Part shown: one piece after another, positions 3,811-52,252 of the stretch
Numbering within the stretch: the first letter of the stretch is position 1
How the letters are laid out: every line of letters starts with the position of its first letter
IMG/VR virus record: IMGVR_UViG_3300010397_000008
Coordinates: 1 to 63,956 of that record
Strand: one strand, 5' to 3'
Origin: a virus
Taxonomy: Duplodnaviria; Caudoviricetes
DNA length: 63,956 nucleotides
Notes under the pieces: model-generated
The model's input: only the letters and a program-made list of their open reading frames with translations
Told to the model about the DNA's origin: nothing
The model's database searches: none
Made by a program: the position numbers and the translations under genes

Positions 3811-4241
3811 GATGGCCCCCTGTAATAAGGCTCGACCCAAATCGTCATGCCGGGCGTCTCCGAGTACCGTTTCAGCACCCGCGCATCGACGACCTGCTTG
3901 TCGTCCCGAAAGACGACCTCGTTGAGCGCGTCGCACAGCTTCAAGGTGTTGTCCGCGTCCGGCTTGACGGTGGGCATGGCCTCGCCGCTCAGCGCGCGGG
4001 CGCGGGCCTTCTTTGACCACGACGCGGGCACCGGAAAGCGAATGTCCATGACCACCGAGATAGGCCCCTCCAAAGGGGGGCGTCCCGCCATCGCCTGCGT
4101 CGCGGCGTGCCGCAACTGCCCCTCGTATTTGACGGTGGCGGGGTCTGAATAGACCCGCGCGCCGACGCCGGGGATCGACACCGCCCGGCCCCGACCCTTA
4201 CCGCGTGGAACCCCCGCCAAGGTGATCGTGATGAGGGTCAC
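3807..4241 (-). CDS. rusA: RusA-family Holliday junction resolvase
   Basis: GKGRGR...KPDADNTLKLCDALNEVVFRDDKQVV motif. Confidence 0.9.
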   Translation of the reverse strand: MTLITITLAGVPRGKGRGRAVSIPGVGARVYSDPATVKYEGQLRHAATQAMAGRPPLEGPISVVMDIRFPVPASWSKKARARALSGEAMPTVKPDADNTLKLCDALNEVVFRDDKQVVDARVLKRYSETPGMTIWVEPYYRGPS

Positions 4242-4786
4242 GCCGCAGCGTGGGTACGCCGCGTCGCGCCACCGAGCGCTTCGACAGCCGCCTTTTGCCC
4301 TTGGCTCCACCCGAGCGAATACGACTGGTATTCCTCGGATGCGACATCGTATCCGCAATTCGACATCGGACTGCCGGCCGTTCCGGCGGCGACGCCTTCC
4401 TCGAACGCGACGTTGTTCTCGTGCTTCTGGATCACCTCGGCGTCCGCGCCGTTGCCGGCCTCGCCCGCTTCGGTCGCGTCCTCGGGGTCGTCGGAAACCG
4501 TCTCGTCGGGATCGACCGGGGCGCTCAGCCAGCGCATATACAGCCGATACCGTTCCTCGTCGGTCTGCCGCTCGTTGGCCGCCTTGAGCGCGTCGTTGTG
4601 GGCGCGTTTCAGCGTCTTTCGGTCGAGCCCGGCGCTCTCGGCGCGCTTGTAGACGGCGGCGACCGCGCTATCCGCCGACGCCTTCACGCGCAGCGCCGTG
4701 GTCAGCATGTCGTTGTATTCGAGCAAAGTTGCTTGATTGACATTTCCGTGCGTCGTCGGCTCTTTCCTCGGGCGTCCTCGGGGCAT
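4238..4786 (-). CDS. AT-hook + GapR(DUF2312)-like + RMF-like fusion protein
   Basis: PRGRPRK; AVYKRAESAGLDRKTLKR...ERQ..E....LY..WL (GapR-like); AFEEGVAAG.AG.....C.Y.......Y..GW..G (ribosome modulation factor-like). Confidence 0.6.
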   Translation of the reverse strand: MPRGRPRKEPTTHGNVNQATLLEYNDMLTTALRVKASADSAVAAVYKRAESAGLDRKTLKRAHNDALKAANERQTDEERYRLYMRWLSAPVDPDETVSDDPEDATEAGEAGNGADAEVIQKHENNVAFEEGVAAGTAGSPMSNCGYDVASEEYQSYSLGWSQGQKAAVEALGGATRRTHAAA

Positions 4787-4813
4787 CTTCTCAGGTTCCT
4801 TTCGGGGTTAAAT

Positions 4814-40238: not shown

Positions 40239-41303
40239 TCAGACCGGGTAAAGCTGCGTGAAGTCCTGGTTCCCGCCCATCGCCAGCGTCGCGGTCGTCG
40301 CCGATGGGTAGAGGCCGCTGTTCTGGATAATCAGCGCGGTCGGCACGTTCTGGTAGATGCCGCCGTCGATGACAACTTCGCCGGTCGAGGTTGGCGCACC
40401 CGTCGCCGTGGTCGGCACGTAGATGACCGCCTGCCGCATGCGGACAAGGCGCAACTGCGTGTCGGGGTTGGTGTAGATCGGCGTCGCCGCCGTCAGCATC
40501 GGGACATACGACATCTCGAACGCCCCGGCGCCGACCGTGTAGCCGGTGCCGCCCGAGAACGTGATCCCGGTGATCGACCAACACATGATCGCGGTCGCCG
40601 CCGCGGCCGACCCGCCGCCGCCCGAGAAAGCCAGCGTCGGCACCGAAGTCAGTGGCGTGCCGTGGTCGGTCGCGAGAAGCCCGGTGATCGTCCCCGATCC
40701 GGTCAGCACGCACGTCCCCTGCGCGTTGCTTCCGGTCGAATCGCGCGCATCGTTGATGAAGCTGATGGTCGGCGCGAACGTGTAGCCCGCACCCTGGTTC
40801 GTGACCGTGACGCCGGTAACGACGCCGCCCGAGATCGTCGCGTAGCCGGTGGCTTGGATGCCCGGCGTCGGCGGGGCCGAGAACGCGACCTCCGGCGGGT
40901 AGACGTAATTGGTGCCGCCGTTCGTCACCGTTACGCTGGTGTTGACGGCACCGCCGACAATCGCCTGCCACACGCTCGACCCGGACGAAGGCGTGACGGT
41001 CGGGGCCGACGTATACCCGGTGCCGGCGTTGGTGATGACCGCGCCGACCGTGCCGCCGGTCTGGTTGCACAGCCGATGGTTCACCCCATCCGACTCGATG
41101 CGAACCGTGATCCCGCCGTCGCCGACGTTCCGCCAGATGCCCGTAACCGTGTCGAGCACCTGATAGTTGGTGTACAGCCCGAGCTTGCCGAGCCAAGAAC
41201 CGGCCGGGACCAACTTCGCCTCGCACGGCTGAAGCTGGTAGACGTTGGAGGGCTGGCCGCGCAGCGTCGGGCCGAGGCCGCTTCCGCCAAAAACAACAGG
41301 CAT
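40239..41303 (-). CDS. Capsid decoration / minor structural protein with G.GY..AP repeats
   Basis: Directly after the MCP; NAGTGYTSAPTV-type repeats. Confidence 0.65.
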   Translation of the reverse strand: MPVVFGGSGLGPTLRGQPSNVYQLQPCEAKLVPAGSWLGKLGLYTNYQVLDTVTGIWRNVGDGGITVRIESDGVNHRLCNQTGGTVGAVITNAGTGYTSAPTVTPSSGSSVWQAIVGGAVNTSVTVTNGGTNYVYPPEVAFSAPPTPGIQATGYATISGGVVTGVTVTNQGAGYTFAPTISFINDARDSTGSNAQGTCVLTGSGTITGLLATDHGTPLTSVPTLAFSGGGGSAAAATAIMCWSITGITFSGGTGYTVGAGAFEMSYVPMLTAATPIYTNPDTQLRLVRMRQAVIYVPTTATGAPTSTGEVVIDGGIYQNVPTALIIQNSGLYPSATTATLAMGGNQDFTQLYPV

Positions 41304-41315
41304 CGTATCCCTCCG

Positions 41316-42383
41316 TTACAGGACGGCCGGCGGGCCAGGCGTGTTCGCCCACGCCGCGCCAGTGAGGCCGGTTAGATGCGCGCCCGAACTGGGTTTGGCG
41401 CATACCAGGTTGAGCGCGCTGATGAGCACGCCGATTTCGGCGATCTGGCCCTGCGGGATCGCGCTCTCGAAGCCCGAGAACACCATCGGGGCCGTGTACT
41501 CGCTGACGAACAGGCTGAGGTAGCGGCTGTTGATCGCGTACATCTCGCCGCGCGGGCAGAACGGGTCGGGGAAGATCGGCGTGTCGAGCACCCGCAGCGC
41601 GCGGAAGCCGGCATTGACCGGATCGTCCTTGCCGTACATCGACCGGGGCCGAGACTGGTACATCTCGTAGCCCATGAAGTCGGCGAGCACCGCCGACCAG
41701 TCGGCCGGGTTCATCACCGCAAAATCGGGCGCGTCGCCGCCGGCCCCGGTCGCGATCCGGGTCAGCGCGATCGCCATCCCCGTCCGGTTGCTGATGCCGG
41801 CGCTGTTCGGCAGGTATTGGCCCTGCCACCACGCATTCCCGGCCCGCGTGATCCCGCCATACGCCGGCACGTTCGCGCCCGCGTCATAGGCTTGCACGAG
41901 GCTGTCGAGCGCGTTCGGCGTCGCGTAGTTGTTCGAGTAGAGCGATTGCGCGAACGCCTGCTTGATGACGACCGCAGCGTCGCTCGTCACCGCCCGCAGC
42001 TTCGGGATGATGACCTCGCTCGACTGGGCCAGCGCCTCGAACCCGAAGAAGCCGATCGGGATCATGCCGATCTTGAGGTTGAACGTCGCGTTCTGAAGCG
42101 CGGCCACGTCCTCCGGCATTGGGAAGTCGCCGGCGAAGCTGCCCCACGAGAACGATACGAACGAGGCGCCCTGCGTCGGGATGGATATTTGGCCGACGCC
42201 GCCTTTTGCGCGCTGCGAGTTGGCCCACAGCAGGGAGAGCAAAGGGTGACTTTGGTAAATCTGGACAAATACGCTGGGGATAACTGCGCGCCGCGTGATA
42301 GCTGACAGTTGAGCCCCGAGTTGACCGCCAGGAGTCAAACCTCCGACAGTAGCCGGGGCCTGAAACGTCGAAGGATACGCCAT
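41316..42383 (-). CDS. Major capsid protein
   Basis: 355 aa after the scaffold gene; YGGITR, PIFPDPFCP.G.MY.INS.YL motifs; strongly biased codons. Confidence 0.85.
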   Translation of the reverse strand: MAYPSTFQAPATVGGLTPGGQLGAQLSAITRRAVIPSVFVQIYQSHPLLSLLWANSQRAKGGVGQISIPTQGASFVSFSWGSFAGDFPMPEDVAALQNATFNLKIGMIPIGFFGFEALAQSSEVIIPKLRAVTSDAAVVIKQAFAQSLYSNNYATPNALDSLVQAYDAGANVPAYGGITRAGNAWWQGQYLPNSAGISNRTGMAIALTRIATGAGGDAPDFAVMNPADWSAVLADFMGYEMYQSRPRSMYGKDDPVNAGFRALRVLDTPIFPDPFCPRGEMYAINSRYLSLFVSEYTAPMVFSGFESAIPQGQIAEIGVLISALNLVCAKPSSGAHLTGLTGAAWANTPGPPAVL

Positions 42384-42416: not shown

Positions 42417-43028
42417 TCACGCGGCGGCCTGGTCGAACTCAGCCATAATTTCGCTGATTTCTTGGTCCTGCCAGCGAATCGGATCTTCATGAAGACGCTT
42501 CATCGACGCGTCTTCCGACTTCCCGTCCATGCCGAGCACGTTCAGATCGGCGGGGCCGAAATTCGTCCCGTTGACGACCTTGGGCGGCTCGATCTCGGAG
42601 GCGACGAGCGCGGCGGCGGCGTGCGGGTCGGCGATGTTGCGCTCGACCATGATCTTCTTGACCTCGGCCATGCCTTCGTCGGTCAGGCGATAGCGGGACT
42701 GTGCCGAGGACAGGTTCTTGACCAGATCGCCGGTCGCCGCAGCATCGGCACGCGCCTGGCGGTCGGCCTCCAATTCCTCGCGGAGCTTCTTGTTCTCGGC
42801 GTCGAGGGCTTCCTGGCGCTCGCGCAGCGGCGTCAGCGCCGGTTCGAGCACGTCAAGTTCGGGGATACGCATGGTCGGGCGCACGTCTTTCATCGCCTTC
42901 TTGATGGCGAGGCCGTGCGTCGGATGGTCGAAAAGCTCGGCTTGGAGCTTCCATGCGTTTTGCAGGGTTGCCAGATCGGCCTTGGTGATCGTGACCAGAT
43001 CGGGATTGGGCTGCGGATCGTCGGGCAT
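42417..43028 (-). CDS. Capsid scaffolding protein
   Basis: Acidic coiled coil immediately upstream of the MCP. Confidence 0.65.
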   Translation of the reverse strand: MPDDPQPNPDLVTITKADLATLQNAWKLQAELFDHPTHGLAIKKAMKDVRPTMRIPELDVLEPALTPLRERQEALDAENKKLREELEADRQARADAAATGDLVKNLSSAQSRYRLTDEGMAEVKKIMVERNIADPHAAAALVASEIEPPKVVNGTNFGPADLNVLGMDGKSEDASMKRLHEDPIRWQDQEISEIMAEFDQAAA

Positions 43029-43217: not shown

Positions 43218-43709
43218 TTATGCGGCCATCGGCATCGGCGGCGCTTCGCCGCCCGGCGCAGCACCCGGCATCGCGGGCGGCTGGCCCTGCGGTGCCATCA
43301 TTTTCGACAGCGCGGCCATCGGCGAGGACTGCGACGCCTGCCGGGCGCTCTGCAAAAGGGACATCAGGTCGATACCCTTTTCGCCGCCGCCGCTGCCGCC
43401 TGAGAAGGTCTTGGTCAGCTTCGAGAGGGTGCCGAGAATTTCGGTGTGCGCCGGGGTTCCCATCGGGATCATCGGCAGCGCTTCTTCGAGCATCGTGATC
43501 GCGTTGCGGACCTTGCTCATCCCGGCCGCCGCGTTGCCGGCGTTCGGCTGCGGCGTGGTAACGGGTCCGACGTTGGGCCTGGCTGCGCCCATCGGGGGTG
43601 CGCCGGGCATCGGCGGTGCGCCACCGGGCGCGGCTCCGCCGGGGGGTGCGCCACCTGGGGGCGCGCCACCGGGCAATCGGGACAATAATGAGGCGATGTC
43701 TGCTGGCAT
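43218..43709 (-). CDS. Pro/Gly/Met-rich head-assembly protein
   Basis: GGAPP repeats around a helical core. Confidence 0.65.
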   Translation of the reverse strand: MPADIASLLSRLPGGAPPGGAPPGGAAPGGAPPMPGAPPMGAARPNVGPVTTPQPNAGNAAAGMSKVRNAITMLEEALPMIPMGTPAHTEILGTLSKLTKTFSGGSGGGEKGIDLMSLLQSARQASQSSPMAALSKMMAPQGQPPAMPGAAPGGEAPPMPMAA

Positions 43710-44562: not shown

Positions 44563-45035
44563 AGGTTTCCGAGCATCCCGCGCGCCTGCCGCCCGGCGTA
44601 CAGCCGCCGTTCGAGGATGCGGAGACGCGGCGCGGGCGCGGACAGGCCGAGCGACCGCCGCCACCGTTCCAAGCGGCCGTTCAGGACGACGACGACACTC
44701 ACGAAGATTTAGGCGATGGGCTAAAGTTAGCCTCGGGCCTAACAGACACTAATTTCCCCGCTCCGACCCGCGAGCCCATCGACACCGCGCCGCAGGACGG
44801 CCGCGACGTGCTGGTGTTCTGGGGCGACGACGACGCCGAGGGCCGCGTCGTGCGCTGGAAGCAGGGCCGCTATTTCACCGGACGCCGATGGATGCAGGGC
44901 GGGCGCTGGGCGCCGTCCGATGGCACCACGCCGCTCGTCGCCGACGCGCCGACGCATTGGCTGAAGCCGCCCGGCAGCGAGGATGCCGCCGCCGAGGGCG
45001 CTCCCGAGGCCGAAGACGAGTCGGCCGCCGCCTGA
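44559..45035 (+). CDS. DUF551-like protein
   Basis: PIDTAPQDGRDVLV...PTHW. Confidence 0.6.
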   Translation: MKVSEHPARLPPGVQPPFEDAETRRGRGQAERPPPPFQAAVQDDDDTHEDLGDGLKLASGLTDTNFPAPTREPIDTAPQDGRDVLVFWGDDDAEGRVVRWKQGRYFTGRRWMQGGRWAPSDGTTPLVADAPTHWLKPPGSEDAAAEGAPEAEDESAAA

Positions 45036-45556
45036 TGGCGCGCTTCAAGATCACCTGTCGGTGCTTGACGTGCGGAAACGTGTGGAAATTCACGACCAAA
45101 GACCCAGAGGCCCCCGACCCGCCGTGTCCGCGTCCCGTCCGGTTTGACGCCGCCGGGAAGGTGGTCGAGACGTGCGGCCACGAGAACCGGGTGCGCGGCA
45201 TGGACCTATCCTCGAACCGCGCGCCGGGGATCGGCGGCGAGAATATCCACAACAAGGCGATCGACGAGACCGCCGCGATGGTCATGCACGATTACGGGAT
45301 GACCGATCTGAGCAGCGACGTTCGCGAGGGCGAGACCGCCGCGCCGAAGCTGCCGCCGCGTCAGCAAGCGATGGCCGACAATTATTTTGGCGGGGCAGGC
45401 GGTCGCCGGCCGCGCATGGGCGTCAACCTTGCCGGCCACGCCGCCGCAGCGCTGAGCGGGCGGCTGTCCGACCCGGCTTCGACCAATCGTTCGATCGGCG
45501 CTGTCCACGCGAACCGCGTGCGACCGCCGGTGCACATCGTCAACCGGCAGGGATAG
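45035..45556 (+). CDS. Zn-ribbon protein preceding the portal
   Basis: C..CG...CP...CG motifs. Confidence 0.65.
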   Translation: MARFKITCRCLTCGNVWKFTTKDPEAPDPPCPRPVRFDAAGKVVETCGHENRVRGMDLSSNRAPGIGGENIHNKAIDETAAMVMHDYGMTDLSSDVREGETAAPKLPPRQQAMADNYFGGAGGRRPRMGVNLAGHAAAALSGRLSDPASTNRSIGAVHANRVRPPVHIVNRQG

Positions 45557-47398
45557 ATGCCCTTAAACATCCCGACATCGACGGACCGATTGGCAAATTG
45601 GGCATCAGAACTGGTGACGGCCTGCCAATCGTCGCTGCAAAAGCGCCGTCAGCGTGGCGCGTCCTTTCGCAACCTCTACCTGACCGGCAGCGAGGACGGC
45701 CAGCCGCAGACATACCGCAAGACCTATACCTACGTCCAAACGCTCGCCTCGATGCTCTATTCGCCGGTGGAACTGCGGTTCACCGTCGCGCCGCATGGTC
45801 CCGCCGGGCCGCGCGACCGGGCAATGGGACACGCCGCTGCGACGACGCTGCTCGAATACATGCGCGGCGGCAACGCCGATACGACCGTCGAGGATGCCGT
45901 CGAGTGGTCGCTCGTCAAGGGCAAGACGTTCATTCAGCTTGAATGGTCTCGTCGCGGGATCGAGGCCCACATGGTTCAGCCCGAGACGATGGGGGTGCTG
46001 CGCGACGACATCACCCGGCTCGACCGGCAGGATGCGTTCGTGCATTCGACGTGGTTGACCGAGGCGCGCTTCGCCGATCACGTCGCGGACCATCCGAACC
46101 GCGCCAAGATCATGCACGACATCGAGAACCTTGCCGGCACCGACGACGACCGGCCGGACACCGCCGACAACGCTCGGCAGGTAATGATCGGCGGGCAGCT
46201 TTATCCGTTCCGCGCGCAGAACACCCCCGGCTCCGGCCAGGGCCGCGGCATCGTCAACTGGCTGCAAGCCCCGATCCCCGAACTCGACTCGAAGACGATG
46301 GCGAGCCTCGTGCGCCTCGACGAGCTTTGGGTGTGGGATCGCACCCGCGACGATTGGACGACAATCCAGCTTGTCGGCAACGTCCTCATCGAGCCGACCG
46401 GGCAGTTCCGCAACGCCTTCGCGGCCGGCGCACACTACGACAAGAGCGGCAAGCGCATCGCTCGCGGCGAACCCGGCGACGATCGCAACCCGCTTTCGGG
46501 ACACCACCCGTTCATCGAAATCTGCGCCAACCCGCTTCCCGACTATTTCTGGGGCTGGTCGGAGATGCTGAACGTCGGCGCGATCCAGATGCAAATCAAC
46601 AAGCTGGTGGACGACATCAACTTTCTGCTGCGCCGCCAACTCGACCCGAGCCACATCTTCACCGGCACCAGCCAGACCGCGGCAAAGGTGCGGTCGGCCC
46701 TGCGGCGACCGGGCGGATACCTCGTCGATTCGAGCCCGCAGTTCAAGCATGAGGAAGTCGCCCCCAAACTGCCCGAGGGCGCGTGGCAAAGCCTCCACGA
46801 ACACGAGGCGATGTTCGACACGATGGCCGGGTTCCCGCCGGTCATGCAGGGCCAGGGAGATTCCGGGGTGCGGGCGCAAGGCCACGCCGAGACGCTGGTG
46901 CGAATGGCGAGCCCCCGGTTCAAAGATCGGGCGCTGGGGATCGAGCGCCAAGTCGAGGAAGTCGGCGGGCTCGCGCTCGACATGCTGCGCGCCCACTGCG
47001 CCGACATGCTTCCCTATTGGGTCAAGGAAAAGGACGTTGGCCCGTTCAAGGGCAAGGAACTGGACGCGCTGATCTACGAGGCCCCGGCGCCGGGCATGGT
47101 CCCGCTGCCGTTCCTCATGCACCAGGTCAGCGACCGTTTCCGCGTCGCGGTAGACAGCCACTCGGCATCGCCGGCGTTCAGCCACGACGCCCGCGAACTG
47201 GCAATCCTGCTCTTGAAGGCTGGCGCGCTCGGGCCGGAGGAACTGATCCGGCAGACTTCGCCGGCGAACGAGGAAGAACTGATCGCCGATCTGCAAACCC
47301 GCGAGGCGGCGAAGGCCGCCGCGATCGCCTCGCTACCGCCCGAACTGCGGGCGAAGGCGATGGGTGCCGGCGGTGGGCGTTCGCGCAGCCACCACTAG
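45557..47398 (+). CDS. Portal protein
   Basis: 613 aa; HPFI...NP..DYFWG.S...Q..IN; G.P....G.G.SGVR pattern typical of podovirus portals. Confidence 0.75.
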   Translation: MPLNIPTSTDRLANWASELVTACQSSLQKRRQRGASFRNLYLTGSEDGQPQTYRKTYTYVQTLASMLYSPVELRFTVAPHGPAGPRDRAMGHAAATTLLEYMRGGNADTTVEDAVEWSLVKGKTFIQLEWSRRGIEAHMVQPETMGVLRDDITRLDRQDAFVHSTWLTEARFADHVADHPNRAKIMHDIENLAGTDDDRPDTADNARQVMIGGQLYPFRAQNTPGSGQGRGIVNWLQAPIPELDSKTMASLVRLDELWVWDRTRDDWTTIQLVGNVLIEPTGQFRNAFAAGAHYDKSGKRIARGEPGDDRNPLSGHHPFIEICANPLPDYFWGWSEMLNVGAIQMQINKLVDDINFLLRRQLDPSHIFTGTSQTAAKVRSALRRPGGYLVDSSPQFKHEEVAPKLPEGAWQSLHEHEAMFDTMAGFPPVMQGQGDSGVRAQGHAETLVRMASPRFKDRALGIERQVEEVGGLALDMLRAHCADMLPYWVKEKDVGPFKGKELDALIYEAPAPGMVPLPFLMHQVSDRFRVAVDSHSASPAFSHDARELAILLLKAGALGPEELIRQTSPANEEELIADLQTREAAKAAAIASLPPELRAKAMGAGGGRSRSHH

Positions 47399-47583
47399 GG
47401 CCGCACTCGGCCCCGTGCTCTGTCGATCAGCTTGAAATAAGCGTCGCGGGTCGCCCAACGGATTTTCCACAGATAATTTCGGCACGCCCGGCAGGTTCTG
47501 TCCCGATGACCCCTGCCATCGACGCTGAACTGGAAGAGAACTTTATCCTCCCCACACCGGACGCACTTGGCTGTTTCAGACAC
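47395..47583 (-). CDS. Small Zn-finger protein
   Basis: C..C...K....F...........C..C. Confidence 0.55.
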   Translation of the reverse strand: MSETAKCVRCGEDKVLFQFSVDGRGHRDRTCRACRNYLWKIRWATRDAYFKLIDRARGRVRP

Positions 47584-48157
47584 GGCCTACCGCAACCTCG
47601 GCGAGACGGTCCATTGCGAAGGCAATCACCCGTTCCTCGTGGTAGCGAATGTTCGCCGGGCGGCGCTTGAAGAACAGAAACCGCGCGGATTGGCAAACAG
47701 CCGGCAGCACCCCGCTTTTTACAGCAAGGGTGCCGGCATGTGCGCGCCACATACATGAGCGTGCAATTCCCGGCGCGATCCCACGAGAAGACCTCAAAAA
47801 ATAAGCAACCGCCTCCCCCTCGGGCAGCGCCACAGTGAACACCGCGTCGGTTCCACTCCACGCCGACGAGCGGTCATCCTCGCGGCCGGTGTAGACATTG
47901 AACACGACATCGCCGGACGCCATCGCGTCGCGCAGCGCGGCTTCGGCCGGTGCGGCGGGGTCGTCGAGAATGCGCCTCGATGCGCGGCGCTTCTTGCCTT
48001 GTATCCGCACCGCATCGAACATCAGTATTCGCATTGGGACAGGCGACACACGGTAGTCGAGGGTCAGCCGCTCATCGCCGAGTTTTTCGGACCATGCCGC
48101 GGCGGCGCGCGCCTCGTCAGGCGTGATCGGTCGGTAGAGGATCAGGCGGCGGATCAT
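47576..48157 (-). CDS. Hypothetical protein
   Basis: ATGA-coupled ORF. Confidence 0.55.
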   Translation of the reverse strand: MIRRLILYRPITPDEARAAAAWSEKLGDERLTLDYRVSPVPMRILMFDAVRIQGKKRRASRRILDDPAAPAEAALRDAMASGDVVFNVYTGREDDRSSAWSGTDAVFTVALPEGEAVAYFLRSSRGIAPGIARSCMWRAHAGTLAVKSGVLPAVCQSARFLFFKRRPANIRYHEERVIAFAMDRLAEVAVGRV

Positions 48158-48612
48158 GCCGGAGGGTGCGCGGCGTTGAAAATCGCCTGCAACACCGGAT
48201 GCGTGCGGTAGATTTGGACCATCGCTGACGGTAAGAATGCGCGGCGCGTGATATTGACAAGCTCGTCCCAAATTGGCGCTGGCTCGGGGAACGCGCGCGC
48301 AACATCGGGCCGCTCGCTGATCTTGACGCTCTCATAACCCCGCTCCGGCGACCATACCGCGGCCACGCCTTCCTGCATGGGAATGGCGATCAGCACGCAA
48401 ATCTGCTTGCCGTTCCAGAGTGGCGACGGCGCGGGCACCTTATCCTTGCCGACGTTCATCGCCATCATGTGCTGAATTTTGAGCACCTTGGCAGCGGCAT
48501 CGAAACTGGCGGCGCGCTCATCTAGCCATTGCTGATACCGAGCACGCTCAGCCGCAGACGGCCGGCGACGCTGCCGGTCAGCCCAAGACTCATGATCGTG
48601 TTTGCGCTTCAC
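48154..48612 (-). CDS. Hypothetical protein whose C-terminus resembles the MCP N-terminus
   Basis: ITRRAFLPSAMVQIYRTHPVL versus MCP ITRRAVIPSVFVQIYQSHPLL. Confidence 0.7.
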   Translation of the reverse strand: MKRKHDHESWADRQRRRPSAAERARYQQWLDERAASFDAAAKVLKIQHMMAMNVGKDKVPAPSPLWNGKQICVLIAIPMQEGVAAVWSPERGYESVKISERPDVARAFPEPAPIWDELVNITRRAFLPSAMVQIYRTHPVLQAIFNAAHPPA

Positions 48613-49463
48613 CCGAACATGCTCCCGAACGGTCGGCGACGGCCGGCGAGGATCGCCGACAGCGCGTCAGCATAGCCCTGTCGCAAGTTGGGGGCCTGGA
48701 TCGGCGCGATCGGGGCGAGTTGCAGCGGCGGCGACGGCGCGGCGACCGCGGGCGCGGCGGCGGCCGGTGCCACCTGTATCGGGACACCGGGGGCCTCGGC
48801 CGCCGTCAGCGCGCGCCGCAACCCGCTCGGTGCGGCGACCGCCGGTGCGGGTGCGTCATCACCACCCGGCACCAGCGGTCCCATCCCGCCGAATCGGCCG
48901 GGCATCCTGCGTCCTGCTGCTTGACCTGCACCGCCCGCACTTTGCTGGCCCGCCTGCACCCCGCCAGCCGAGCGCTCGAAATACTTGTCCCACAGCTTCG
49001 CCGCCGTCGCGCGGTCGGGGGCCGCGAGGATTTCTGCCCAATGCTTCGTCGCGATTGGATCGCCGCCCGTGACCTCGCTGTAAGCGTGCTGGTGCTGAAC
49101 AAGCGGGTTCTGCCAGTTCGGGCGCTGCATGAGCGCGGCCTTGCGATCGGCGTGGTGCTGGTAGAGGCCGATGCTGGTGCCCTTGTCGCCGGGCACGGTC
49201 GGATTGAACCCGCTCTCCGCTTGCACCCGGTCGGCAATGCCCTCCGCGACGTGAGGCGGGGCACCCTTGCTCGTCCAGAACGCGACGGTTTGGGCGCGCG
49301 GGTCCGGTGCGACCGTCGCAACGGCCTTGGCAAGAGGGGACGACGACGCGAAGCGTGCGCCCGATGGGTCCGCTTGTTCCTGCGCGTCAACAGCAAGCCG
49401 CCATGCGCGCGGGCTGCTGTAGACTTTGCCGTCAACGGTGATCGGCGCGCCCGGTTCGGCCAT
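48609..49463 (-). CDS. Phage tail lysozyme-like (Phage_lysozyme2) muramidase with a Pro/Ala-rich tail
   Basis: GI.....AESGFNP...GD.GTSIGLYQ....R...L...YFER motif. Confidence 0.8.
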   Translation of the reverse strand: MAEPGAPITVDGKVYSSPRAWRLAVDAQEQADPSGARFASSSPLAKAVATVAPDPRAQTVAFWTSKGAPPHVAEGIADRVQAESGFNPTVPGDKGTSIGLYQHHADRKAALMQRPNWQNPLVQHQHAYSEVTGGDPIATKHWAEILAAPDRATAAKLWDKYFERSAGGVQAGQQSAGGAGQAAGRRMPGRFGGMGPLVPGGDDAPAPAVAAPSGLRRALTAAEAPGVPIQVAPAAAAPAVAAPSPPLQLAPIAPIQAPNLRQGYADALSAILAGRRRPFGSMFG

Positions 49464-51371
49464 TTACATCAACCCCCGTTCCTGCCGCCACGGATCGCCG
49501 GCCCACGCCGGCGGCTCGTCGTCGTCATCCTCGGCCTCACGACGCGAAAAGTACGAGTAAACGAGCCGGTCCATCATGCGCTCCGCGACCGTGTTGCGGC
49601 CAGCCGCTTCGTTCATCACCCGGTCGTAGGTCGCCCCAGCGGCGATCAGCGGCATCCGCAGCCACTCGTTCCACGCCCACACCGCGAGCGCCGCGGCGAA
49701 CGGGCGATCATCCTTGAGGCTGCCCGGCGCGGCTGGAGCAAGGTCGGGCTTTTCCTGAACCATGTCGTTCATTTCTTCCAGCATGGGCATGCTGTTCACA
49801 ATCAGCGTGTCGGTCTGATAGGCGTTGCGGAACCCCTCGAACAAGGCAACCTTGTTGGAAGCTGACGTTTTGAAGTTGTACACGAATCCCGCGCCCAGGC
49901 TGTCAACGCGCCGATAGAGGAACCACCGCGCCGTGGACATAAAGTCGTCGTCCCAGGCGTTGTCGCGGTTCTGCGTCGCGTACATCTCCTGGCGAAGTTG
50001 CGCGCGGATCGCGTCAAATTCGTTCATCACTACGGCGCCGCCGCCCCACAACTCCAAGTTCACCATGCAATTCCGGTAGGCACCGGCAAGCCCGGCCAGC
50101 ACCCACGCGCACTGGTTGGACTGGAAGCGGTTGCCGGCGTACTCGGCAACCTGAACCATCTTGTCGGCAAAACAACGCCACACGCTGATGCAAAAATTGT
50201 TGGTTTTCTCGCCCTGCCCGCCGGCCGGGTCGGCACCGATCACGTACTGCGCCTCGATGATCGGGTCTTCCCAAATCTTCAACTCGATCTGGTCGCGGTA
50301 GGCCGGGTCGGTGATTCGCTCAAGCCGCATCGCCCAAAAGCTGTTTCCCATCTCGAAGCGATACGCTTTGAACTTGATGTCCTGCTCGACGATCTCGCGG
50401 TAGCGGTTCTGCAAGAGGCGGGTCTGAAAGAACGAATAGCCCGACAGTACGAACGCCTGCCGTGCGGTCCACGGCTGATTCTGTTCCTGCGATTGCTGGT
50501 CGCTCAGCGACAGCCGCCAGCGCCACCACGCCAGTTGCTCCATCGTGACGACGTGGCCGTATTCCTCCAAGACCTCGTTGCAAAGCTGGTGTTCCTCGCC
50601 GTTGGGCGGGGTCAGCCCAAACCGGCGATAGTTCGGGGAATTGCGCGGGAGGTAGTTCATCTCCGACGCCCACCATCCGAGGAAGATGCGGTTGATCGAC
50701 AACTCGTCCTCGGCCGATTCCCACATGTCGTGCCAGGCGTTCGCGACACCTTTTGCCGTACTTTCAAACAAGAACAAGCGATCTTCGTTGGATTGCGCCA
50801 GAGCCTCCATGAAGCTCTTGATGCCCTTGTCGCTGCCGTAGCTGGCGACCTCCGTGCACAGGCACGCGCTATAGCCGCGCGACTCACCCCAATTCTCCTT
50901 GCGCTTCCCGGCGACGAGGTAGTCGATGCGCGAGCCGTTGCTGAACAGGAAATGCCGCTCGTTGTGGCGTTGCTTGACGAAGCTCGATCCGAAGAAATTG
51001 GGCGGAAACGACTTCATGTAGCGGTCGAGCGTGTCCCGGAAGGCGTTGCGGACTTCCTCGTCGTTACACACCAGCGCGGCGATCGTGCGCGGATGCACCG
51101 CGACCCAGAACAGCAAGAGCGCGGTGGTGATTGTAGAAATGCCCAATTGGCGAGACTTAAGTACGTAAATCATGCGCTGGTTCTTGAGGAACCCGTCGCC
51201 GACCTGTTCGAGAAACATGCGCTGCGAGCGCCACATATCGAGCGGGCTGCCGCGGTCGTCCTCGGCCTGGACCTCCTTCGAGTCGATGCGCAGCTTGTCG
51301 ATGAACTTGATGAACAGCGACAGCCACGGCTGCCGGCGCGCGAGGGTCGAGAGGCGGTCAGGTGGCGGCAT
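49464..51371 (-). CDS. terL: Terminase large subunit
   Basis: LKSRQLGIST Walker A; TEVA Walker B; FESTAKG; YVIGADPA.G nuclease; DDRPFA. Confidence 0.95.
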   Translation of the reverse strand: MPPPDRLSTLARRQPWLSLFIKFIDKLRIDSKEVQAEDDRGSPLDMWRSQRMFLEQVGDGFLKNQRMIYVLKSRQLGISTITTALLLFWVAVHPRTIAALVCNDEEVRNAFRDTLDRYMKSFPPNFFGSSFVKQRHNERHFLFSNGSRIDYLVAGKRKENWGESRGYSACLCTEVASYGSDKGIKSFMEALAQSNEDRLFLFESTAKGVANAWHDMWESAEDELSINRIFLGWWASEMNYLPRNSPNYRRFGLTPPNGEEHQLCNEVLEEYGHVVTMEQLAWWRWRLSLSDQQSQEQNQPWTARQAFVLSGYSFFQTRLLQNRYREIVEQDIKFKAYRFEMGNSFWAMRLERITDPAYRDQIELKIWEDPIIEAQYVIGADPAGGQGEKTNNFCISVWRCFADKMVQVAEYAGNRFQSNQCAWVLAGLAGAYRNCMVNLELWGGGAVVMNEFDAIRAQLRQEMYATQNRDNAWDDDFMSTARWFLYRRVDSLGAGFVYNFKTSASNKVALFEGFRNAYQTDTLIVNSMPMLEEMNDMVQEKPDLAPAAPGSLKDDRPFAAALAVWAWNEWLRMPLIAAGATYDRVMNEAAGRNTVAERMMDRLVYSYFSRREAEDDDDEPPAWAGDPWRQERGLM

Positions 51372-51383
51372 AGGACTCGTTCA

Positions 51384-51614
51384 TTATGGGCGAACCCCGA
51401 TAACGCGCAGCCGGTGGGCCGACATCAAGATCGCCTTTGCTGCCGTGATTTCCGCCCGCCGCCGCGCCCTCGCTCGATTGCGCCGACGCTGCGCGTTTCG
51501 CGTGCCCTTCCATCGCTTATAGTACGCCTTCTTGTACTCGTTCCGGCACACCTTGCAATGGCCGCTCGCATCGCGGCCGGCGTCGTGTCCCCGCAGGCAG
51601 GGGGTCGTCATCAC
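51384..51614 (-). CDS. Small Cys/His basic protein
   Basis: C.RGH.......C..C. Confidence 0.55.
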   Translation of the reverse strand: MMTTPCLRGHDAGRDASGHCKVCRNEYKKAYYKRWKGTRNAQRRRNRARARRRAEITAAKAILMSAHRLRVIGVRP

Positions 51615-52252
51615 GATACCGCGAAGATGTTGACCATCCCGAACGCACCCTGCGCCGGATGCGGCTGATCGCGGTCAAACGAATAATCCGCCAGCATCGC
51701 CACGGCGCGATCGAGTTTCGCGATCTCGCGCTCCATCAGGGCGATGTTGGCCTGTTGCGCGGCGATTCGCTGGTCGAGCAGCGCCGCGATGCGGTTGCCC
51801 CCGGTCTTGCCCTTTTTGACCTTGAACCGCCCGCGCAGCTTTTCCGATTGCGCCAGGTGGCCGGCGACCTCGTGCTTGCGCTGGGACATGCCGGATTTCG
51901 CCTCGACTGCGGTGCGGGTCATCATACCGAGCAGGTCCATGCTGGTCGGGTCGCGGCCGCTCTGCGCGCATTGTACCATCGCCGCGTCGAGCAACTGGCT
52001 GATCGCCACCAGCGCATCGGCCAGCGCGTTGTCGGGGGCCTCATCGTCGATCACCCCGTCGCGGTCGAACCGGGCGCGCCTCGCCGGGTCGAGCAGCACC
52101 ATGCTCGCGCGCTTCGTCCGCTGGAACGCCACCGGATCGCCACCGTGGTCGGGGTGCGTCGCCTTGGCGCGGGCGCGGTACGCGCGGCGCACGGCCGCGG
52201 TGTCGGCGCCGGGCGCAATCCCGAGTTCGGCGTAGGGGTCAAGTTGGGGCAA
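51611..52252 (-). CDS. J-domain (DnaJ-like) protein with coiled coil
   Basis: DPYAELG...VRRAYR..AK.THPD.GG...F......L.DP..RARFD. Confidence 0.9.
   Translation of the reverse strand: MPQLDPYAELGIAPGADTAAVRRAYRARAKATHPDHGGDPVAFQRTKRASMVLLDPARRARFDRDGVIDDEAPDNALADALVAISQLLDAAMVQCAQSGRDPTSMDLLGMMTRTAVEAKSGMSQRKHEVAGHLAQSEKLRGRFKVKKGKTGGNRIAALLDQRIAAQQANIALMEREIAKLDRAVAMLADYSFDRDQPHPAQGAFGMVNIFAVS

Follow-up and report, generated by a model that had tools for sequence, protein, structure and literature searches.

The window analysed here is the whole of the virus record IMGVR_UViG_3300010397_000008, a complete tailed-phage genome of 63,956 bp with direct terminal repeats and a G+C content of 64% that is rated 100% complete. 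It encodes a small protein of 152 residues, ORF152, whose C-terminal tail is an old, selectively maintained copy of the N-terminal arm (N-arm), a helical segment, of the HK97-type major capsid protein (MCP) of the same phage. The tail recurs at the end of a second family of small phage proteins that is otherwise unrelated to ORF152, and it is tentatively suggested below that it may act as a docking peptide during capsid assembly.

A copy of the capsid arm at the end of ORF152

The features that enter into the comparison are the following.

48154..48612, minus strand: ORF152, 152 amino acids (aa) from a GTG start, in which a basic, helical N-terminus precedes a small alpha/beta body and the arm-like tail
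48157..48264, minus strand: the arm-like C-terminal tail of ORF152, residues 117-152, found by BLASTP to the MCP and by a match to an arm-only profile
41316..42383, minus strand: the MCP, 355 aa, which matches phrog_9953 'major head protein' at 2.2e-19
42210..42320, minus strand: the N-arm segment of the MCP, residues 22-58, source or paralog of the ORF152 tail

The C-terminus of ORF152 reads ...ELVNITRRAFLPSAMVQIYRTHPVLQAIFNAAHPPA and residues 25-52 of the MCP carry ...QLSAITRRAVIPSVFVQIYQSHPLLSLL. When the two proteins are compared by BLASTP, residues 117-144 of ORF152 align with residues 25-52 of the MCP without gaps, with 15/28 residues identical, 21/28 positives and a pairwise E-value of 6e-8. 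An earlier, sequence-only reading of this DNA had reported a gapless match with 14 of 21 identities over ITRRA..HP.L, and that count is correct. In a six-frame search of the whole genome the tail and the arm are each other's only non-self match, with genome-wide E-values of 3.7e-5 when the MCP is used as query and 8.5e-6 when ORF152 is used, and a motif scan of the window finds exactly two copies of the arm motif.

The copy is not a fresh duplication, as had been proposed from the divergence of its codons, indeed across the 28 codons of tail and arm 45/84 bases are identical and only 9/28 third positions are. The proportion of synonymous differences (pS) between them is 0.70 and that of nonsynonymous differences (pN) 0.38, with a rough ratio of nonsynonymous to synonymous substitution (dN/dS) of 0.27. 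An origin of the similarity at the level of the DNA, either as a recombination repeat or as an RNA element, was considered and rejected, given a nucleotide identity of 54% and third positions that are random.

The ORF152 family and selection on the tail

A word-indexed search recovers two relatives of ORF152, with the tail present in both. An exhaustive HMMER search of 1.84 billion representatives recovers 20 proteins at E<=1e-3, 17 of which were read, the other three (P0013, P0015 and P0016) being long proteins that are matched by short internal stretches only. Eight of the 17 have both the body and the tail (P0002-P0008 and P0010), P0009 has the body but has lost the tail after 'SELAVSR', P0011 and P0012, of 84 and 60 aa, consist of little beyond the tail and P0018 is a fragment of an MCP, which leaves five (P0014, P0017, P0019, P0020 and P0021) that are a different type of protein ending in the same tail.

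The sequence-only reading had named loss of the tail among homologs as the outcome that would tell against it, and for the most part this is not what is found: the tail is kept, at 29-55% identity, in 10/11 database relatives of ORF152 and is the best-conserved part of these proteins. Mean pairwise identity among the nine full-length members of the family (36 pairs) is 52% in the tail versus 32% in the body, and in a 12-row alignment of the family the only invariant or near-invariant residues past the methionine are R123, R124, A125, P128, Y135 and P139, all of them within the tail, which is the opposite of what is expected for a neutral scar. Purifying selection acts on the ORF152-type tail. 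What stands of the earlier capsid-mimic reading is therefore a diverged copy of the MCP arm that is kept by selection; set against it are tail-less variants, namely P0009 and an 88-aa homolog in L003 and L004.

To define the tail independently of its bodies, an arm-only hidden Markov model (HMM) was made from 41 unique sequences out of 54 MCPs belonging to three clades. At E<1e-3 this HMM finds the tail in 11/12 ORF152-family proteins, the miss being P0009, and in 120/120 listed proteins of the second family (the leader family, described below), although these 120 had been selected with a profile that contained the tail. The matches have a median score of 41-43 bits and end a median of five residues before the C-terminus in the ORF152 family and nine in the leader family, and none of 660 shuffled controls scores better than E=0.065. 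A strict regular expression finds the tail in 95/120 leader-family proteins, which is an under-count when compared with the HMM.

The positions that are invariant in the arm (L4, T8, R9/R10, A11, P14, V18, Q19, Y21 and P25) coincide with those conserved in the two families of tails. Tail and arm agree in their consensus residue in 23/34 columns in the ORF152 family and in 18/34 in the leader family, and column conservation in arm and tail is correlated, with Spearman coefficients of 0.57 and 0.43 respectively. The last seven columns of the arm (SLLL.NA) are not preserved in the tails. No ORF152-family DNA was found in the viral contigs or the metagenome contigs searched, P0017 has no match in viral contigs, and a search of PDB sequences with the ORF152-family profile gives one irrelevant match at E=0.14.

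A leader-bearing family with the same tail

The second family is made up of phage proteins of 70-130 residues, unrelated to the ORF152 body, that have the same tail at their C-terminus, joined by a variable linker to a leader with the consensus RRGF.xGLG....AAPAIVRAxSLMPV. Of 8000 candidates scored with a profile built from seven sequences, at least 1630 match at E<=1e-3, and the statistics of the family given here rest on the best 120 of the 1630 matches. A regular expression for the leader is matched in 118 of those best 120, and the linker has a median length of 34 residues with a range of 19-47.

The family has no match in Pfam, PHROG or NCBIfam at threshold. Its leader resembles a twin-arginine translocation (Tat) signal, however TIGR01409 (Tat signal) gives 13.0-14.6 bits in 8/15 leader-family proteins with 0/15 reaching the cut-off of 16.7 bits, and Pfam TAT_signal has no match in 5/5 proteins tested, therefore the resemblance is suggestive only. 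The language-model neighbours of P0021 in the ESM Atlas are confined to unnamed clusters and Tat-signal families, and are leads only. ORF152 itself is without a Tat-like leader.

The MCP reaches NCBIfam NF033394 (capsid_maj_Podo) with 91.4 bits against a cut-off of 80, over positions 4-309 of a profile of about 311 positions; ORF152 does not match this profile. Leader-family proteins give 10.6-11.5 bits with it, below the cut-off, and as the match is confined to profile positions 2-36 these proteins carry the arm and not the capsid fold. A search with the leader only finds 11 proteins, five with the arm tail and six with unrelated C-termini. Leader and ORF152 body each occur without the tail, and leader and tail, like body and tail, are therefore independent modules.

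There are some further features of the leader. It is found with unrelated C-termini on many small phage proteins (P0141-P0146, and in G059 and G050), and past the hydrophobic stretch its sequence shows more conservation than would be usual if it were no more than a signal peptide. L131 has two ORFs with the leader, 3996-4289 and 4286-4810, side by side with an overlap of 4 nt. In L099 and L100 (G046 and G037) there are leader-family homologs at ~1492-1752, each an 87-aa frame without a recognisable arm tail, which may be decayed or frameshifted copies.

Occurrence in related genomes

The MCP was used to fetch 45 related loci from viral contigs, with MCP identities of 64-93%. When three ORF152-family proteins are searched against these 45 loci by tblastn only the MCP arm is matched, and when the family profile is run over 30 whole records 29 are matched, the top match always being the MCP arm. 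Only the two closest relatives of the window, G001/L003 and G002/L004 (MCP identity 92-93%), show a second match, which is weak (E=2e-5) and syntenic. The syntenic protein of L003, 88 aa in length, shares its first ten residues and an AIWSPE block with P0003 (E=7e-7), and ends right after the AIWSPE block, with no tail, where the homolog of the next gene, ORF193, begins.

Tail-bearing genes are also found in other clades. An MCP of the same family is present in 8/8 genomes that could be read for both (the window, G031, G036, G041, G043, G050, G060 and G057), loci that were reached by searches favouring phages with this MCP family. G031 is a complete phage of 45 kb, whose MCP matches the MCP profile at E=4e-80 and which has exactly two arm motifs and one leader; G036, G041 and G043 are in the same clade, and G050, G060 and G056/G057 belong to a third clade, with phages of 62-66 kb. 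Tail and arm of G050 share 21/34 residues, with a 16-residue run, but only 11/34 third positions.

The arm in the capsid protein and its candidate partners

Within the MCP, 19/28 columns of residues 25-52 are at least 90% conserved across 30 MCPs versus 155/303 columns elsewhere, and the conservation of the arm ranks 51 of 328 MCP windows, so that it is not the single most conserved stretch of the protein. A low-confidence AlphaFold2 (AF2) model of the MCP has helices at residues 21-32, 37-44 and 47-54. Mean predicted local distance difference test (pLDDT) values are 40.3 for the MCP, from a 30-row alignment, and 49.2 for ORF152, from a 3-row alignment, and are too poor to use. Foldseek with the MCP model finds nothing in PDB at E<=0.001, and searches of PDB sequences return nothing at E<=1 with the MCP profile and two irrelevant matches at E>1 with the single sequence.

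One neighbouring gene encodes a candidate partner of both arm and tail.

42417..43028, minus strand: scaffold-like protein, 203 aa, helical, directly upstream of the MCP

We infer that the 203-aa protein is the scaffold from its position, its helical character and a C-terminal block that is conserved in 30 relatives; it reaches no Pfam, PHROG or NCBIfam family at threshold. Contacts between arm and scaffold are described for other phages, thus in the 80alpha procapsid the C-terminal helix of the scaffold packs on the N-arm helix of the capsid protein (PMC5644958), and in SPP1 every MCP subunit is reported to bind scaffold via its N-terminal helix (PMC6813328). After scaffold release the N-arms of SPP1 extend and pair antiparallel with the arms of adjacent capsomers (PMC6813328). 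A complex prediction with the MCP, residues 140-203 of the scaffold-like protein and residues 100-152 of ORF152 gave a score of 0.00 in two runs without controls, which is evidence neither way.

Possible functions of the tail

The reading that we tentatively favour, as a possible rather than a probable one, takes the tail for a docking peptide, modular in nature and descended from the MCP N-arm, that would couple accessory proteins to procapsid assembly. The tail is found on ORF152 bodies, on minimal proteins of 60-84 aa and on the leader family, and this modularity is a hallmark of a targeting or docking signal. The genomic setting points the same way, with an MCP of the same family in all eight genomes and, in the window, translational coupling to the terminase and a virion-type lysin. 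Furthermore a conserved terminal peptide that has exchangeable partners, is accessory and co-occurs with a matching shell looks like such a signal. The residues with which the arm is predicted to make its contacts (L, TRRA, P, VQ.Y, P) are kept in the tail, and for this reason the tail should be able to occupy the site that evolved for the MCP N-arm. Judging from solved phages, that site would at the procapsid stage be the C-terminal end of the scaffold, and at a later stage a neighbouring MCP, at its N-arm or P-domain. The ORF152 tail would presumably compete for, or fill, this site, so that any protein fused to the tail would be tethered to the procapsid during its assembly, with recruitment or encapsidation of accessory proteins as the outcome; physical binding, the identity of the partner and the final place in the particle are here what we infer. 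A bolder version, in which we have a little less confidence again, is that the arm serves as a transferable 'self-address' peptide on hundreds to thousands of small accessory proteins, both cytoplasmic ones of the ORF152 type and leader-bearing ones that may be membrane-active or exported, which might ride into the procapsid for delivery to the next cell or jam the capsid assembly of competing phages with the same arm.

A number of observations weigh against docking as the function of the tail. ORF152 is accessory and dispensable and its distribution is patchy: the gene is absent from 7/7 relatives of the window clade that are at least 90% complete, and a tail-bearing gene is absent from 6/9 near-complete records of the G031 clade (present in three) and from 5/7 records of the third clade (present in two). 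The cognate arm beats the arms of other clades in only 2/8 tail/arm pairs, these being the window (15 versus 13 identical residues) and G050 (21 versus 14), ties in one pair and loses in five, the tail of G036 sharing 21/34 residues with the G050-clade arm versus 13/34 with its cognate arm. The minimal proteins P0011 and P0012 fit a competitor or a decoy better than a cargo label, unless they are partial gene calls. Finally, if the leader truly exports the proteins that carry it, their tails would exert their effect outside the cytoplasm, away from the site of procapsid assembly.

Some of these same observations would suit a competitive modulator or poison, in which a free copy of the arm plugs the arm-acceptor site of the MCP or titrates the scaffold, and thereby delays or limits the phage's own assembly or blocks co-infecting phages that share the MCP family. 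Minimal proteins with little beyond the tail, a patchy distribution typical of conflict genes and several tails that, like that of G036, are closer to the arm of another clade are all in keeping with it, as is the report that arm-arm and arm-scaffold contacts are essential for lattice formation in SPP1 (PMC6813328). It would nonetheless seem unlikely, as translation of the window gene is linked to that of late genes of the same phage and its tail is closer to the MCP of that phage (15 identical residues) than to any other (at most 13), and it would therefore poison its own assembly unless its dosage is low; the N-terminal bodies, conserved but variable, would also be left without a role. We consider it quite unlikely that the tail has been co-opted for a structural purpose unconnected with the capsid, as a compact helix-turn-helix or self-associating element, copied from the MCP gene, that serves as a generic oligomerisation or folding unit in small phage proteins, cytoplasmic as well as exported. 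The tail does stand behind a Tat-like leader in hundreds of proteins, two cognate wins in eight pairs is no convincing co-variation, and the N-arms of SPP1 pair, so the element may self-associate (PMC6813328). Set against this, the tail keeps the same residues as MCP arms despite randomised third positions, which is not expected from a generic fold alone, and it is found alongside this MCP family in each of the eight genomes, albeit at loci from searches that favour such phages.

An immune decoy or trigger-mask, in which the tail is a surrogate ligand that saturates or mis-activates a host sensor of the MCP N-arm, is very unlikely in our view. In the T4 Gol peptide/Lit system a short capsid peptide is said to be the trigger. 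Capsid proteins and short capsid peptides are known triggers, an example being an MCP that activates CapRel (PMC9712102). The accessory, patchy occurrence of the gene would also fit, as would the retention in its tail of the residues that define the surface of the arm. However, a mimic would be expected to trigger a sensor rather than to block it, the proteins of the leader family seem to be exported or bound to membranes, in contrast to the capsid sensors known so far, which are cytoplasmic, and the window gene is late and co-expressed with the MCP so that a decoy would be outnumbered. It also counts against a decoy that, to our knowledge, there is no sensor for this MCP family. That the similarity arose by chance, or is a neutral recombination scar at the end of an ORF, is scarcely credible: although a segment of 28-34 aa is short and is missing from two members of the family, the genome-wide E-value is 8.5e-6, the tail is present in 10/11 relatives, its conservation exceeds that of the body, a second family has it too and no shuffled control matches.

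Comparison with known targeting signals and mimics

The capsid targeting sequence (CTS) of T4 is N-terminal, about ten residues long and cut off by the prohead protease, it targets the scaffolding core and is no copy of a capsid protein. The tail of ORF152, in contrast, is C-terminal, about 30 residues long and homologous to the MCP N-arm, and it does not fall under the T4-type definition of an N-terminal, protease-cut peptide of about ten residues. No protease family was found among the ten neighbouring proteins searched against Pfam and PHROG. There is nevertheless a likeness, in that the CTS is a short conserved terminal peptide on the diverse internal proteins IPI, IPII and IPIII which it directs into the prohead (PMC3012670), and here too a conserved tail is found on variable bodies in accessory genes.

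The C-terminal targeting peptides of encapsulin systems, which sit on unrelated cargo and bind a site of N-helix and P-domain inside an HK97-fold shell (PMC11664910), are like the tail in their C-terminal position. Unlike the tail they are about ten residues in length and not homologous to the shell protein. Whereas an encapsulin system has no packaging genes, its shell gene lying next to that of the cargo, the window is the complete 64-kb genome of a true phage, terminase and scaffold-like protein included. Overall the tail is therefore no encapsulin cargo peptide: it shares the position but is homologous to the shell protein and is encoded beside a terminase.

SaPI1 CpmB copies the C-terminus of the 80alpha scaffold and binds the same capsid site beside the N-arm helix (PMC5644958), and like ORF152 it is a small accessory protein with a C-terminal copy of the interaction segment of an assembly protein. 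The two differ in that CpmB copies the end of the scaffold and is encoded by a parasite of the phage, whereas ORF152 copies the MCP arm, the other side of the interface, and is encoded by the phage itself. ORF152 is no mimic of the scaffold terminus, its comparison with the scaffold-like protein by BLASTP giving E=20. As with capsid-derived immune triggers such as the MCP sensed by CapRel (PMC9712102), a short conserved segment of the MCP could be sensed. The triggers of CapRel and Gol/Lit are, in contrast to ORF152, parts of the MCP itself and not separate genes that carry a copy.

Terminal targeting peptides are thus already known, and what is new is a label that copies the arm of the very protein that forms the shell. 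A search of full-text literature, supplementary files aside, found no report of an N-arm mimic, an N-terminal-arm decoy or Tat-type capsid-linked phage proteins. If the tail does dock on the partners of the arm, this would be the first example in nature of a signal for capsid targeting, or for interference with assembly, that stems from the capsid protein itself, and would provide a sequence-level handle on the N-arm partners in procapsid assembly across a large group of uncultured phages. Either outcome, cargo loading or interference, would establish a new principle, namely mimicry of the domain-swapping arm of a shell subunit. With docking on the partners of the arm, a very large family of small 'hypothetical' phage proteins (at least 1630 matches) would gain a role that can be tested, and a tag of ~30 residues would be at hand for loading proteins into HK97-type shells.

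The translationally coupled cassette

ORF152 is a real, late gene. Its G+C by codon position is 0.66/0.47/0.72, a coding pattern that is weaker than that of the core structural genes (0.83-0.86 at third positions), and the following genes surround it.

49464..51371, minus strand: terminase large subunit (TerL), 635 aa, phrog_2 at 3.7e-13, which heads the coupled gene string
48609..49463, minus strand: lysin-like protein, 284 aa, PF18013 Phage_lysozyme2 at 8.3e-10 and 39.4 bits (cut-off 28.2)
47576..48157, minus strand: ORF193, 193 aa, downstream of ORF152, starting at the ATG at 48157

The sequence-only reading had placed ORF152 in the terminase operon and this agrees with the gene order, which is terminase, lysin-like gene, ORF152 and ORF193, all translationally coupled. 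The TerL stop abuts the start of the 284-aa lysin-like gene, the TGA of the lysin-like gene overlaps the GTG start of ORF152 (GTGA), with a GGGAG 9 nt upstream of the GTG, and the TGA of ORF152 overlaps the ATG of ORF193 (ATGA). Within 47300-51700 no promoter-like sites were found, and terminator-like sites are not commoner there than in shuffles. The label 'non-structural' that ORF152 had been given is an assumption. Homologs of ORF152 begin MKR..., the protein has no match in Pfam, PHROG or NCBIfam, and the ESM Atlas gives no usable feature match for it.

The mechanical call for ORF193 is a 231-aa frame (47576-48271, minus strand) that overlaps ORF152 by 118 nt. Its start is placed at the ATG at 48157 instead, because of the ATGA overlap and because the homolog in L003, which is 41% identical (E=4e-36), begins at the equivalent MVIRRLIL. 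ORF193 has no match in Pfam, PHROG or NCBIfam.

The terminase large subunit is conserved in relatives at 40-58% identity, and in most of them it is followed by g222 of the portal block within about 0.35-0.9 kb (coordinates of high-scoring segment pairs), therefore the string of lysin-like gene, ORF152 and ORF193 is an inserted cassette. Third-position G+C in the cassette genes (47576-49463) is 0.67-0.79 versus 0.83-0.86 in the terminase, the MCP and a 613-aa protein, which is consistent with a separately acquired insert.

The lysin-like protein also matches lysin regions of tape-measure proteins in PHROG. In the window it ends ...YADALSAILAGRRRPFGSMFG (48609-48690, minus strand), and an otherwise different lysin-like protein of L003, 360 aa in length, ends ...YQDALASILNGQRRGFGSIFG (1200-1283). 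The shared end may represent a second conserved C-terminal motif in the cassette, possibly an incorporation signal.

The genome and its relatives

No cultured relative of the phage was found among 50,697 deposited phage records. The top MCP match in these records is an uncultured 'Bacteriophage sp.' at 37.7% identity, and the Myxococcus phages Mx8 and Mx9 are next by MCP identity, at 26%. A scan of genome contigs with the MCP alignment gives nine loci, binned into metagenome-assembled genomes (MAGs) of many phyla. One of these, L122 (63,977 bp), has a 100% identical MCP and the same ORF152 and is binned in a Ramlibacter sp. MAG; the MAGs that hold relatives come from at least seven further groups at the level of phylum. 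As the bins are spread over so many phyla, binning gives no reliable host.

Three further features of the morphogenesis region are as follows.

44888-47398, plus strand: the block of g222 and the conserved 613-aa protein, the latter a portal candidate by size and position only, without a family match
40239-41303, minus strand: 354-aa protein directly after the MCP, with repeated immunoglobulin-like segments
43218-43709, minus strand: 163-aa protein, Pro/Gly/Ala-rich with PGGAPPGGAPPGG repeats and no family match

The block of g222 and the 613-aa gene runs counter to the terminase and MCP genes in the window as well as in L003 and L004, lies on the same strand as them in many relatives (for example L005, L017, L021 and L023), and in L008, L015 and L019 only the 613-aa gene is flipped. 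This variation in strand among relatives indicates that the morphogenesis module has been inverted repeatedly. Most relatives also have the 163-aa protein, encoded between portal block and scaffold-like gene. The 354-aa protein is kept after the MCP in nearly all relatives and matches parts of giant virion structural, head-closure and baseplate-wedge PHROGs, and it is likely to be a head decoration or fibre protein.

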